In this document: one piece after another, positions 2,979 to 14,010 of the stretch | Numbering within the stretch: position 1 is the stretch's first letter | Layout of the letters: each line of letters opens with the position of its first letter | IMG/VR virus record: IMGVR_UViG_2698536549_000018 | From: a virus | Taxonomy: Duplodnaviria > Heunggongvirae > Uroviricota > Caudoviricetes | DNA length: 14,213 bases | Reading direction: 5' to 3' (one strand) | Program-made: the position numbers and the translations under genes | The notes under the pieces: generated by a model | Seen by the model: only the letters and a program-made list of their open reading frames with translations | The model's database searches: none | Told to the model about the DNA's origin: nothing

Positions 2979-3055
2979 TGGACCGCCATCGAGGACTCGA
3001 ACCCCGCGCAGCCAGCTTCGAAGGCTGGCGCTCTATCCCGATGAGCTAATGGCGG
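2979..3055 (-). tRNA. tRNA-Arg (anticodon UCG by manual fold)
   Basis: Reverse complement folds as a cloverleaf: acceptor CCGCCAT/ATGGCGG (7 bp), D-arm GCTC..GAGC, anticodon stem CCAGC/GCTGG with loop CTTCGAA, T-arm CGGGG-TTCGAGT-CCTCG, discriminator and encoded CCA. Confidence 0.8.
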
Positions 3056-3064
3056 TATGTGATA

Positions 3065-3139
3065 TGGTGGCCTTGCTGGATTTGAACCAGCGACCTGGCG
3101 ATTATGAGTCGCTCGCTCTCACCACTGAGCTAAAGGGCC
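3065..3139 (-). tRNA. tRNA-Ile2/Met-like (anticodon CAU), ileX-like, with an apparent 1-nt deletion in the 3' acceptor strand
   Basis: Reverse complement GGCCCTTTAGCTCAGTGGTGAGAGCGAGCGACTCATAATCGCCAGGTCGCTGGTTCAAATCCAGCAAGGCCACCA resembles E. coli tRNA-Ile2. Anticodon loop CTCATAA, T-loop TTCAAAT. The 3' acceptor strand reads AAGGCC where AAGGGCC is needed to pair with 5' GGCCCTT. Confidence 0.7.
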
Positions 3140-5907: not shown

Positions 5908-6063
5908 TTACTTCTCAGATTCGTAGTCCACGAAGACAGCGACCTCCGTCTGGCCGGTTCGGATTCGTACCTCGCAGAGGTCTTTCCTCGTTACCAGTGC
6001 CGTCACTATGACGGTTAAACAGATGACGATCAGGGCGACTAACATCGCCTTTTGCTGCTTCAT
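5908..6063 (-). CDS. hok: Hok/Gef-family type I toxin (51 aa); in-frame upstream ATG at 6120 gives a 70-codon mok-like frame
   Basis: MKQQKAMLVALIVICLTVIVTALVTRKDLCEVRIRTGQTEVAVFVDYESEK matches the Hok signature (single TM helix, conserved ..RK.LCE.R...G..EVAAF..YES..). GGAG SD upstream of the ATG at 6063; terminator downstream. Confidence 0.85.
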   Translation of the reverse strand: MKQQKAMLVALIVICLTVIVTALVTRKDLCEVRIRTGQTEVAVFVDYESEK

Positions 6064-6274
6064 AGACTGCTTCTCCTTGCCTTTCGGCACGTAAGAGGCT
6101 AACCTACATTTGTGAGACATAGATTGGGCCTCAGATTAATGTTAAGCGTCTTGCAGGACGCGTAATGTTAACTGGGGCTTTTCTCTATCTGCCTTTTGGT
6201 GTTCATGCCTGAGGCAGATAGCCTCAAGCACCCGCAGCAATTCTACTTAACTCTCCTTTTCCCGCAAACCGTTT

Positions 6275-10298: not shown

Positions 10299-10694
10299 AT
10301 GGATTTTGCAACTATCACAAGTAGCGTTGTGTTGAGTGCGTGTGTTGCTGGCGTGGTTTCGCTGGTTAATGGTGCCTGGCAACGCAAATCGGAACGAACC
10401 ATTGAAGCGCAACGCCGGGCTGCTGAAGCCAGAGCAAAAATAAGAGAAATGGCTCTCACCCTCGCATTGAAAGAATGGGAGCTCCACCAAACCATATCGA
10501 AGGCAAAGGGGTATGGTGTCAGCGGCCCAGAAGTTTACGTCTTTCGATACTTTCGTATGCTCAACCTGATGGAGGAAGACAAATTCACGATTGAAAATCT
10601 CAGACTGATCCAGTACGACTCCATGTGTGCTGTTGCAGCAATTCAGGCAGAGATCGAGCGATATCGGGAGAAAAACGGCCTCCCGATGCCATAA
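10299..10694 (+). CDS. Hypothetical membrane-anchored protein (131 aa) with N-terminal TM helix and coiled-coil region, opposite in orientation to the early operon
   Basis: ATG with strong SD (CAGAGGAGG, 6-nt spacer). N-terminal hydrophobic segment (ITSSVVLSACVAGVVSLV) then charged helical region. Converges on the 73-aa minus-strand gene with a 4-bp gap. Confidence 0.6.
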   Translation: MDFATITSSVVLSACVAGVVSLVNGAWQRKSERTIEAQRRAAEARAKIREMALTLALKEWELHQTISKAKGYGVSGPEVYVFRYFRMLNLMEEDKFTIENLRLIQYDSMCAVAAIQAEIERYREKNGLPMP

Positions 10695-10928: not shown

Positions 10929-11354
10929 TTAGTGCATCACCACGGCATTTCCTGCCGGGCCACCACGGTTCATCTGATTGAAACCGGCAATCGCCACTGC
11001 GACAAAATCATCAGCGTCTCTCACCAGTCGTTCCCGCGTCTCCACCAGCTCCCGAAAATAGGCTGAACTGTGGCTGCGCATTCGGGCCACCAGCAAAGGT
11101 GGCATTGCCTTTTCGATCGCTGGTAACAACGCCTGAATTTTTTCAACAGCATCAAGGGTGTCTTTCTCTACCCAGCGGAAAATTTTCTGGGTATTACGAG
11201 CTAGGGCTTCCGGATGGCTGTCGCCGTACAGTTCCGGAAATGTCATTCCCAGTTCAAAATACGCTTTGGTAATCTTCGCAGTTGGTACTTTCTCGCCATC
11301 CGGATGCGCCCAGGCATTCATCGCCATGCGGATGTGCTCATGGCTGATTTTCAT
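10929..11354 (-). CDS. YdaT-like protein (141 aa), second gene of the Rac-type Cro/YdaS-YdaT module
   Basis: Size and position match Rac YdaT (second gene after the cro-like gene, divergent from the repressor). Overlaps the 3' end of the Cro-like gene by 17 nt. Confidence 0.7.
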   Translation of the reverse strand: MKISHEHIRMAMNAWAHPDGEKVPTAKITKAYFELGMTFPELYGDSHPEALARNTQKIFRWVEKDTLDAVEKIQALLPAIEKAMPPLLVARMRSHSSAYFRELVETRERLVRDADDFVAVAIAGFNQMNRGGPAGNAVVMH

Positions 11355-11661
11355 GAATCATTTGCCTCTTGATATTTCGGGTATGCTCGTTTTCGTCATT
11401 TGGTTGCTTCATCAACATATTCAGCGAATAGCATGACGAGCGTCGTAAGTATGACCAGTCAACATCAGGACGAAGTTCTTCGCACAGAACACCACCTCTT
11501 GTTGCACGTTCAATTGCTGGACATCGCTCAGCAGGCAACTGACGTACACCTTTGATCCATTGATTTACGCTTGGAGGTGATACACCTAAAAGCCTAGCCA
11601 TTGCAGATTGCCCACCGACAACAGCACACGCTCGTTTGAATGAATAGTTCTCTTTTTTCAT
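11338..11661 (-). CDS. Cro/YdaS-like helix-turn-helix regulator (107 aa)
   Basis: HTH signature (..QSAMARLLGVSPPSVNQWIKGVRQLP..). First gene transcribed leftward from the operator region, divergent from the repressor. Confidence 0.75.
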   Translation of the reverse strand: MKKENYSFKRACAVVGGQSAMARLLGVSPPSVNQWIKGVRQLPAERCPAIERATRGGVLCEELRPDVDWSYLRRSSCYSLNMLMKQPNDENEHTRNIKRQMIHENQP

Positions 11662-11691
11662 CGAATGAACTCCAAAAAAACACGAAACAAT

Positions 11692-11760
11692 ATTAGGCGA
11701 CGCCTAATACAAATGTCAATAGGCGTCGCCTAACGCAAATGAAGTAGGGATTGCCTAATG
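11692..11760. promoter_or_regulatory. Right operator region: three 17-bp operators (ATTAGGCGACGCCTAAT at 11692-11708; AATAGGCGTCGCCTAAC at 11718-11734; GTAGGGATTGCCTAATG at 11744-11760) with a leftward promoter (-35 TTGACA complement at 11714-11719, -10 near 11691-11696)
   Basis: The first site is a perfect 17-bp palindrome, the second near-perfect, the third degenerate in one half. Centres are 26 bp apart. TTGACA sits between sites 1 and 2 on the minus strand, with a TAATAT-like -10 overlapping site 1. Confidence 0.6.
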
Positions 11761-11786
11761 CAATGAGCATAGGAGAGTATTAAGCA

Positions 11787-12263
11787 ATGCTTAGTGGTAA
11801 AGACTTAGGCCGAGCGATAGAGCAGGCCATTAACAAAAAAATTGCATCAGGATCCGTCAAATCAAAGGCGGAGGTAGCGCGTCACTTCAAAGTCCAACCA
11901 CCATCAATCTATGATTGGATTAAGAAAGGTTCGATAAGTAAAGATAAACTTCCAGAGCTATGGCGTTTCTTTTCTGATGTGGTTGGCCCAGAGCATTGGG
12001 GGCTTAACGAATACCCCATACCCACCTCCCTCATTTCAGATACAAAAAGTGAACTTTTAGACATAAACAGCCTTTATCAAGCCGCCTCTGATGAAAAAAG
12101 AGCCATTGTGGCTTTTCTCTTATCAGCAAATGCCACGGAACCTGGTTGGGTTGATCATGACGTTCGCGCCTACATTGCCACAATGGAGATGAAGGTAGGT
12201 AAGTATTTGAAAGATCAAGAATCAGAACGGAAAAGCCAGAACATCACCAAAACGGGAACTTAA
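11787..12263 (+). CDS. Prophage repressor, RacR-like HTH protein (158 aa)
   Basis: Divergent from the Cro-like gene across the operator array. GGAGA SD upstream. N-terminal HTH-like segment (SKAEVARHFKVQPPSIYDWIKKG). Same length as Rac RacR as recalled. Confidence 0.75.
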   Translation: MLSGKDLGRAIEQAINKKIASGSVKSKAEVARHFKVQPPSIYDWIKKGSISKDKLPELWRFFSDVVGPEHWGLNEYPIPTSLISDTKSELLDINSLYQAASDEKRAIVAFLLSANATEPGWVDHDVRAYIATMEMKVGKYLKDQESERKSQNITKTGT

Positions 12264-12356
12264 ACTTATATGGTCTGATGGGAACCTCCTAGAGCCCGTT
12301 ATCTAGCCCCCCATCACCTCTTCCACATATCATCGCCTATTAGGTTTTCGTCAAAA

Positions 12357-12402
12357 ACATTAGGCGCAGCCTATTGACAATTAATTAGGCATTACCTATA
12401 GT
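12357..12402 (+). promoter_or_regulatory. Left operator/promoter: rightward promoter (-35 TTGACA 12374-12379, 17-bp spacer, -10 TATAGT 12397-12402) overlapped by operator-like sites ATTAGGCGCAGCCTATT and ATTAGGCATTACCTATA
   Basis: Half-sites TTAGGC/GCCTA match the right-operator consensus. Consensus -35 with 17-bp spacing to a TAtAgT -10, downstream of the repressor stop. Confidence 0.55.
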
Positions 12403-12746
12403 TCTCCCATACCAACCCACCCCGCCCACAGAACACCGGGCAATACTTCGAGTTACCCGGCAGTGATTAGGGGTTAAGTAGCCAGCCCGAGGCGTATGAA
12501 CATGACGGCGGGAACACTTTGTATAACAGCGCAGCAGGTTTTTAGTTCCGCTACCCCGGCGTTAAGGGGAAATGAGGTCAACATGGATACGCTCAATCTT
12601 AGCAACAACGAATCTCTGGTATGCGGTGTGTTCCCTAACTAGGACGGCACCTTCACCGCGATGACGTATACCAAAAGTAAAACGTTTAAAACCGCAGCTG
12701 GCGCGCATCGCTGGTTAGCAAGAAACACTGACTGATGAGGTTGACG

Positions 12747-13106
12747 ATGGAATTTAAATATTTACCGCCTTCAATCCAGGAGATTGCAGCACACACACTT
12801 CGTCATCGTCTGAACGAACTTGAATTGGAATCGGTAACAAAAAAAGACACTGATAATATGGCTCGTAATGTGCGCGATGCGTTTACTGGGCTGTTTTCAG
12901 ATACAGCTTTAAATATCCATGGCACAGAGGATACAGCAAAACAATTTGCAGAAAAAGAAGTGGAAGATCTCAGTTCAAAGAGCCAGAAACAGCCAAACAA
13001 CCATGAAATTAACGAACTGCTTCTGGCAACAGGCTTCATAAATATTAACGAATATGAACGCCGTAAAAAAATGTTATCTGATCAATCCATCAAGATATCT
13101 TTTTAG
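12747..13106 (+). CDS. Hypothetical early-left protein (119 aa from the ATG at 12747)
   Basis: GAGG 6 nt upstream of the ATG at 12747; acidic, helical-looking sequence; no family recognised. Confidence 0.55.
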   Translation: MEFKYLPPSIQEIAAHTLRHRLNELELESVTKKDTDNMARNVRDAFTGLFSDTALNIHGTEDTAKQFAEKEVEDLSSKSQKQPNNHEINELLLATGFININEYERRKKMLSDQSIKISF

Positions 13107-13821: not shown

Positions 13822-14010
13822 ATGGAAACGTTATTACCAAACGTTAATACGTCTGAAGGTTGTTTTGATATTGGTGTTCTGCTCAGTAACCGGGAGTTTA
13901 CTGAAGATGCCATTAATATGAGGAAATATGAGCCTTATCTGCTCAATGATAATTCCATACTTTCCCGAATTGCTCTTCTTGAACTTGGTATTTTCGGAGA
14001 ACGTCAATGA
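13822..14010 (+). CDS. Hypothetical small protein (62 aa), first of a translationally coupled pair
   Basis: GAGG 7 nt upstream of the ATG; its stop overlaps the next start (ATGA). Confidence 0.5.
   Translation: METLLPNVNTSEGCFDIGVLLSNREFTEDAINMRKYEPYLLNDNSILSRIALLELGIFGERQ

Follow-up and report, generated by a model that had tools for sequence, protein, structure and literature searches.

The 14,213-nucleotide stretch of DNA analyzed here (the window; IMG/VR virus record IMGVR_UViG_2698536549_000018, Caudoviricetes) contains, at positions 11661-12420, the immunity (lysis/lysogeny) module of a lambdoid prophage of the RacR type, located at the canonical immunity position. The repressor gene racR is flanked on both sides by operator dyads of the form TTAGGC-N3-GCCTAA. 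We consider it highly probable that these belong to a single RacR-type immunity switch, with a right set in the gap between racR and the divergent gene ydaS, and a left pair placed on a promoter that resembles the early-left promoter PL of bacteriophage lambda. The switch as a whole is already known from Rac, a prophage in Escherichia coli K-12, and the left pair with its promoter, for which we found no published description, is a modest addition to it.

Known and predicted operators and promoters on both sides of racR

The protein families assign the three genes of the module clearly. With 245.7 bits (E = 1.9e-73), the repressor exceeds the cutoff of 200 for the NCBIfam RacR equivalog (NF049929); it is 93.7% identical to K-12 RacR over 158 amino acids, and YdaS is 86% identical to K-12 YdaS. 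The genes racR (+) and ydaS (-) diverge from a gap of 125 bp with face-to-face promoters and several operators, the layout of a CI/Cro pair, and YdaT with the YdaT box provides the CII-type activator with a site of its own that follows cro in such modules. A sequence search of the PDB with RacR did not return a solved relative.

Table 1. Features of the immunity module in window coordinates. Right-hand dyads are designated by the distance of their centre from the A of the racR start codon.
Feature	Position	Strand	Remarks
ydaT, CII analogue, 141 amino acids	10929-11354	-	Open reading frame; second gene of the ydaS operon; Pfam YdaT_toxin, 8.7e-10
YdaT box ATGATTCATGAAAATCAG	11344-11361	-	Overlaps the ydaT start codon; one mismatch to K-12 ATGATT-N6-AATCAA
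ydaS, Cro-like regulator, 107 amino acids	11338-11661	-	Pfam YdaS_toxin, 4.3e-30; P22_Cro, 1.3e-8
ydaS promoter (PR analogue)	-35 TTGACA 11719-11714; -10 TAATAT 11695-11690	-	18-bp spacer; hexamers identical to K-12
Operator dyad -87 TTAGGCGACGCCTAA	11693-11707, centre 11700		Perfect; over the -10 of the ydaS promoter; identical in K-12
Operator dyad -61 ATAGGCGTCGCCTAA	11719-11733, centre 11726		Abuts/overlaps the ydaS -35; half-sites as in K-12, spacer differs
Operator dyad -36 GTAGGGATTGCCTAA	11744-11758, centre 11751		Weak left half, only one good half-site
Leaderless racR promoter, -10 (K-12 PracR3)	11775-11780	+	GAGTAT, aligned with GAGAAT in K-12
Operator dyad 0 TTAAGCAATGCTTAG	11780-11794, centre 11787		Centre at the A of the racR start codon; the ATG is the central spacer; published as O3
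racR, repressor, 158 amino acids	11787-12263	+	N-terminal helix-turn-helix; short C-terminal domain, not an S24 peptidase
Left operator dyad 1 TTAGGCGCAGCCTAT	12360-12374, centre 12367		Shares its final base with the PL -35 (first T)
Left operator dyad 2 TTAGGCATTACCTAT	12385-12399, centre 12392		Over the PL spacer and -10; 25 bp from dyad 1
PL analogue (putative)	TTGACA 12374-12379, N17, TATAGT 12397-12402	+	11 of 12 consensus positions
Early-left leader start, right mosaic boundary	12408-12495	+	Common to other immunity types

A preliminary description of this DNA had placed three sites in the gap with centres exactly 26 bp apart, one of them a perfect palindrome. All three are present, and the perfect one (TTAGGCGACGCCTAA at 11693-11707) even widens to a 19-bp palindrome at 11691-11709; their spacing, however, is 26 and 25 bp, and the third site is weak. 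A fourth dyad, TTAAGCAATGCTTAG, had been overlooked. It lies a further 36 bp away over the racR start codon, the first codons of the gene (ATG CTT A..) being operator sequence themselves, and it is followed downstream by a lone half-site at 11805-11810, also missed before. The leftward promoter with a consensus TTGACA that had been described as interleaved with these sites is found as stated (TTGACA-N18-TAATAT, 11719-11690). On the other strand, TTGCCT in the right half of the -36 dyad is a candidate for the -35 element of the leaderless racR promoter.

Since the gap is 93% identical to its counterpart in K-12, and the latter has been mapped experimentally, the right-hand half of the switch amounts to the rediscovery of a characterized system. 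Three of the four gap dyads are identical in the two prophages and the fourth differs in its spacer only. Physical binding of RacR has been demonstrated for the K-12 ortholog (PMC9638921; PMC5700373), where DNase I footprints cover the racR-ydaS gap and define the motif (T/A)TAGGC-N3-GCCTA(T/A), with one operator over the racR ATG (PMC9638921); both motif and ATG copy recur here. In the same study the ydaS promoter region was protected at the lowest protein concentration, primer extension gave a single ydaS start downstream of TTGACA/TAATAT, and a mutation in the -10 abolished the promoter. The strongest racR promoter of K-12 is leaderless, PracR3 having been mapped and mutated (PMC9638921). 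Four inverted repeats have been noted in the K-12 gap (PMC11014345; PMC11879457), and RacR forms an octamer in solution (PMC11014345). YdaT, a DNA-binding analogue of CII (PMC9986795; PMC11879457), acts in K-12 as a CII-like activator: its site, ATGATT-N6-AATCAA, overlaps the ydaT start codon, and it switches on a reverse promoter of racR (PMC11879457).

Beyond the repressor gene, the preliminary description had noted related sites overlapping a rightward TTGACA-N17-TATAGT, and these are the two dyads TTAGGCGCAGCCTAT and TTAGGCATTACCTAT with centres 25 bp apart. The left region has its counterpart in K-12, where the two dyads and the -35 and -10 hexamers are conserved. Its resemblance to the right-hand side extends beyond the half-sites: the arms 11711-11733 and 12360-12382, each comprising 23 nucleotides with a dyad plus the adjacent -35 of its promoter, are 87% complementary, and in direct register 11717-11757 matches 12358-12398 at 73% of positions. 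Each of the two lytic promoters takes its -10 from the outer half-site of one dyad (CCTAATAT or CCTATAGT), and its -35 directly adjoins the end of the second (GCCTAT running into TGACA). As judged by sequence and comparison, a predicted second operator set of the same specificity sits on an early-left promoter. We infer that RacR binds the left dyads and that PL is active, with a start near 12409.

The clustering of the dyads is far from random. The pattern TTAGGCNNNGCCTAA with at most two mismatches occurs five times in the 14.2-kb window, against 0.455 matches expected from 2000 first-order Markov simulations, and at up to three mismatches all seven matches of the window fall within 11700-12392. 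Dyads of the TTAGGC-N3-GCCTAA form are confined in the window to the two clusters of the immunity region, and in a 41-kb stretch around the window one further match with at most two mismatches was found, far outside the window. Pairs spaced by 24-27 bp were observed three times, but in none of the 2000 simulations. For the promoters, on the other hand, a consensus scan returned three matches where 2.7 were expected, which is not above background, and the support for them comes from position and conservation rather than from match counts.

Conservation of the left pair and alternative explanations

For comparison we used loci encoding RacR homologs with 57-62% identity, from Mixta, Morganella, Proteus and Klebsiella phage KpF5, as well as homologs that share the N-terminal domain only, from Achromobacter and Pigmentiphaga. 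The left pair is kept in 10 of 11 distinct RacR-type immunity types. Nearly all the loci compared have two dyads 25 bp apart within TTGAC(A/T)-N17-TA(A/T/C)(T/A)(A/G)T, and these are found anywhere from 68 bp to 1.4 kb after the repressor stop codon; in KpF5 they lie past an extra gene and an intrinsic terminator. With such variable distances, the pair is evidently tied to the promoter rather than to the place where the repressor gene stops. On the right-hand side, the position of the -36 dyad and its right half-site are kept in all RacR-type loci examined, and the dyad over the racR ATG is kept across Enterobacterales, Betaproteobacteria and Pseudomonas phages, even where the Pseudomonas phage repressors share about 53% of the N-terminal domain. 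The loci outside Escherichia have three right-hand dyads at -60, -35 and 0 (L007-L012 and L015), whereas the Escherichia type has four, with an extra unit of about 26 bp (window 11685-11760) that pushes the ydaS promoter one operator further away from racR. Throughout, the spacer bases vary freely and the half-sites are kept. The N-terminal domain is highly conserved across the repressors compared, which agrees with one shared operator specificity.

A further line of evidence comes from mosaic boundaries. Outside the module, prophages of three unrelated immunity types have ydaT in common on one side and the early-left leader on the other. In blastn comparisons, homology to these three prophages ends at 11360 and resumes at 12408 in two cases and at 12418 in the third, position 12408 being six bases past the TATAGT of PL. 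The breakpoints delimit an immunity-specific block at 11361-12407 that includes the left dyads and PL, and its left edge is marked by the YdaT box. Each of the three prophages has its own promoter with its own flanking repeats just upstream of the junction with the shared leader. The leader itself (12408-12495, +) is C-rich (CATACCAACCCACCCCGCCC...GGGCAATACTTCGAGTTACC...) and 86-88% identical in prophages of at least three other immunity types; it might conceivably serve as a Rho loading site or as an antitermination site.

An alternative account has to be considered for the dyads beyond racR. They might be relics or chance occurrences, with the early-left genes expressed solely by read-through from the racR promoters and silenced by Rho-dependent termination. 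Several observations speak for this account or otherwise weigh against a functional left pair. Rho-dependent termination in or after racR, acting on transcripts begun at the racR promoter, has been described as protecting cells from kilR, and the corresponding model manages without a separate promoter (PMC4150792). Promoter-like matches, as stated above, do not exceed background. Left dyad 2 carries two mismatches, as does the -36 dyad on the right-hand side, and in Klebsiella sp. R390 no downstream pair was present within the 2.5 kb fetched. In the searchable literature we found no direct binding or transcription data for the left pair of any RacR-type phage, and our search, whose scope did not extend to older subscription papers such as those on sbcA genetics, found no published left operator or promoter of the Rac type. 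Finally, part of the left operon appears to be decaying: the first gene after PL, of the DUF1391 family (ydfA/ydaF-type; 12583-12735, +), has an in-frame amber stop at 12640-12642 and is a pseudogene in RefSeq, and the next annotated gene (12747-12897) is marked as incomplete.

We nevertheless regard relics with read-through as an improbable explanation. Paired dyads and promoter are conserved across genera even at a distance of 1.2-1.4 kb from the repressor gene, the simulations never produced a pair at the observed spacing, the mosaic junction coincides exactly with the start predicted for PL, and equivalent promoters exist in prophages of other immunity. Moreover, read-through and a PL promoter can coexist, as in lambda, which has a terminator after its repressor operon in addition to PL. 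A third left site was also sought by analogy to lambda, and a candidate, TTAGGTTACGCT(C/T)AA, is found 19 bp upstream of left dyad 1 in K-12 and in E. ruysiae. It was rejected, as it lacks conservation in other genera and is broken in the window by a 1-bp insertion.

Still less probable is the idea that the module is an addiction cassette akin to a toxin-antitoxin system, with RacR as the antidote, YdaS and YdaT as the toxins, and the dyads serving only to silence toxin expression. Both RefSeq and Pfam do use the name 'toxin' for YdaS and YdaT, and racR is essential in K-12 because expression of ydaS-ydaT is lethal (PMC5700373; PMC5700377). YdaS, however, matches Cro families, and YdaT is the DNA-binding CII analogue described above. 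The genes also lack the organization of a type II toxin-antitoxin system, with racR divergent from ydaS-ydaT and a published mechanism of transcriptional repression (PMC5700373). The module occupies the canonical immunity position in a prophage with replication, lysis, head and tail genes, it is also present in KpF5, a phage isolated from wastewater, and a second operator set on an early-left promoter would be pointless in a simple pair of toxin and repressor.

A main role of the palindromes as RNA hairpins or terminators is hardly credible: a terminator scan did flag 11710-11690 and 12373-12361 (-) as hairpins with a T-run, but the T-runs are weak and the flagged hairpins are the operator palindromes themselves, for which reason we rejected these matches, RacR footprints fall on these palindromes in K-12, and variable spacers between conserved half-sites are the pattern of a protein site and not of a stem. 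An Rfam scan of the whole window identified no RNA family in 11300-12800, leaving no explanation by a riboswitch or small RNA for this region.

The switch with operators on both sides of racR therefore remains the reading we prefer, and the lambda-like arrangement of right and left operators with one shared specificity, as originally proposed, is supported by the gene families, the K-12 footprints and the conserved left promoter at the edge of the module. Apart from the spacing and the missed dyad, the preliminary observation was real, and its interpretation is supported in substance.

Host prophage, proposed mechanism and inducibility

The chromosome of E. coli HY220605 contains the segment 11300-12750 at 100% identity, with racR, a helix-turn-helix protein and a YdaT-family protein annotated there; the window as a whole likewise matches a prophage of this strain at 100%. 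At least 80% of the query 11300-12750 is present in 1085 of 5426 complete E. coli genomes. The host prophage is lambdoid, about 47.7 kb in length, and lies between potB and potC. It encodes integrase, excisionase, an exonuclease, dicB, replication functions, a Q-like antiterminator, a lysis cassette, terminase, portal, capsid, tail and tail-fibre proteins, with few pseudogenes. It looks complete, and the immunity module is intact, as had been suggested from the window itself.

A number of further features were noted in the window. Between ydaT and the replication genes, the rightward early operon is interrupted on its opposite strand by an annotated open reading frame of 131 amino acids without a Pfam match (10299-10694, +), which may be an inserted accessory gene. 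The cell-division inhibitor gene dicB (13822-14010, +) is part of the early-left operon; the small RNA DicF was not found in the window with Rfam at the gathering threshold. Elsewhere in the prophage, Rfam matches at 1-193, 1953-2165, 2982-3139 and 6061-6233, all on the (-) strand, comprise two copies of the small RNA STnc100, one of them truncated at the boundary of the window, as well as two tRNA genes and the sok antisense RNA adjoining a gene of the hok family.

In the mechanism that we propose, RacR dimers would recognize the TTAGGC-N3-GCCTAA dyads through their N-terminal helix-turn-helix. Occupation of the -87 and -61 dyads, which overlie the -10 and -35 hexamers of the strong ydaS promoter, would shut off ydaS, ydaT and the replication genes behind them, and binding to the -36 and 0 dyads, which lie over the racR promoters (among them the leaderless promoter with its start at the ATG), would lead to negative autoregulation at high levels of RacR. 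The left pair would be built into the -35 and -10 of PL in the same manner, with PL reading into the DUF1391 gene, dicB, exonuclease, xis and int. As the left pair mirrors the right-hand design, one repressor could silence both early operons. YdaT, bound to its box, would, as in K-12, act back on racR through a reverse promoter located within ydaS.

The left pair, if it is a true operator, would also explain why the entire early-left operon is derepressed when RacR falls. In K-12, where this operon holds kilR, recET, xis and int, the genes ydaG, ydaF, kilR, ydaE and racC rise 40-70-fold at lowered RacR (PMC6765115), and the same early-left derepression follows silencing of racR by CRISPR interference (bioRxiv 10.64898/2026.09.06.749655). 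Downstream of PL in the present prophage, the genes concerned would be the DUF1391 gene, dicB, exonuclease, xis and int.

Given an octamer in solution and two operator clusters about 640 bp apart, left and right sets may be bound cooperatively by looping. The RacR octamer might then form a lambda-like bridge from the right pair to the left pair, looping out some 640 bp that include racR, and such a bridge might take the place of the linear array of four dimers that has been proposed for the racR-ydaS gap. Note that the left-right distances of the individual loci (641, 639, 616, 654 bp and larger) have no common helical phase and so provide no argument for or against a loop.

The preliminary description had called the prophage possibly inducible; our analysis does not support induction of the lambda type. 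In the Pfam search, no Peptidase_S24 domain was matched in this RacR, and without that domain the lambda route of RecA-stimulated self-cleavage is not expected. The repressors of an Achromobacter metagenome-assembled genome (L011, 2501-3595) and of Pigmentiphaga (L012, 2501-3403), in contrast, match Peptidase_S24 with E values of 1e-13 and 4e-15, fused to a RacR-type N-terminal domain that is about 75% identical over 77 amino acids. Both loci share the TTAGGC-N3-GCCTAA operators and the promoter layout of the RacR type, as though cleavable and non-cleavable repressors had swapped domains; the repressors encoded by the Pseudomonas phages are long. The combination of RacR DNA-binding domain, operators (with the one on the repressor's start codon among them) and embedded promoters may be a portable unit that carries a short C-terminal domain incapable of self-cleavage in Enterobacterales and a LexA-type S24 domain in Betaproteobacteria, and with exchangeable C-terminal domains the same switch could be wired to different induction signals. 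The combined proposal, in which the left dyads are a genuine and hitherto undescribed left operator that engages the octamer in a loop, and the RacR domain, operators and promoters form a portable unit, is offered as a tentative one that we find possible but do not favor.

Pfam searches with the unassigned open reading frames of the window returned an AraC-type helix-turn-helix, DUF977 and the Q-like antiterminator, but no antirepressor. The outline of the LexA box, CTGT-N8-ACAG, is matched once, by CTGTTTTCAGATACAG at 12891-12906 (+) within an open reading frame of 123 amino acids (12735-13106). We rejected this candidate: at least one such match occurred in 30 of 200 shuffled sequences, and it is therefore no evidence of SOS control. 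In K-12, a lowered level of RacR is sufficient for excision of Rac (PMC11014345; bioRxiv 10.64898/2026.09.06.749655). RacR-type immunity is also in use by non-defective phages, as evidenced by the deposited record of Escherichia phage vB_EcoS-683R6, which encodes a RacR-type repressor with 92% identity, and by KpF5, which was isolated as a phage and carries the same module.

Comparison with known systems

The general picture of lambdoid immunity is not changed by these findings. Their value lies in a complete-looking prophage that would provide a natural system for the study of RacR-type immunity in a possibly viable phage, unlike the defective Rac of K-12, and in a left pair that offers a loop rather than a linear array as a reading of the RacR octamer.

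The K-12 Rac prophage is the closest relative. Besides the nearly identical repressor, it shares the Cro-like and CII-like partners, the dyads at -87, -61, -36 and 0, the leaderless racR, the hexamers of the ydaS promoter and, past racR, both dyads together with their promoter. Rac, however, is a defective remnant of 23 kb, whereas the prophage described here has a full set of structural, lysis and replication genes. YdaS has 98 amino acids in K-12 and 107 here, and further differences concern the spacer of the -61 dyad and the -10 boxes of two racR promoters (GAGAAT in K-12, GAGTAT here). The possible third left site of K-12 is broken in the window, and the early-left operon leads to kilR in one case and to dicB in the other.

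As in lambda, the repressor and cro genes point away from each other, and operators alternate with the divergent promoters between them; the repressor mRNA has no leader, a further, putative set of operators is placed on the early-left promoter, and a CII-type activator follows cro. The operators are likewise about 2.4 helical turns apart, at 25-26 bp here; the operator spacing in lambda is 23-24 bp. Four right and two left dyads are found in place of three and three, each is a 15-bp dyad with a 3-bp spacer, and one is centred on the ATG of the repressor gene itself. The two sets are separated by about 640 bp, compared to about 2.3 kb in lambda, and the C-terminal domain of RacR is not an S24 peptidase. 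Both repressors form octamers (PMC11014345), but K-12 YdaS is reported not to repress racR (PMC9638921).

The Qin prophage, with DicA/DicC and dicBp, similarly combines a short repressor that does not cleave itself with a PL-like promoter into a DUF1391 (ydfA-type) gene and dicB (PMC10448788), a set of early-left genes also found in the present prophage. Qin has another repressor and other operators, and it uses the antirepressor Rem, while no antirepressor gene was found in this window.

The PaaR2/YdaS/YdaT module of the cryptic prophage CP-933P from E. coli O157:H7 differs in its repressor and in its operator specificity, with repeats of the GTTTAGTAA type, and in the toxin-antitoxin pair inserted after the repressor gene; one of the prophages of other immunity in our comparison (L018) has TTTAGA-type repeats at its PL. 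The architecture of the CP-933P module and its octameric repressor nevertheless correspond to those of the RacR type, and past its repressor operon, left operators likewise accompany a PL-like promoter, whose repression has been shown experimentally (PMC8630535).

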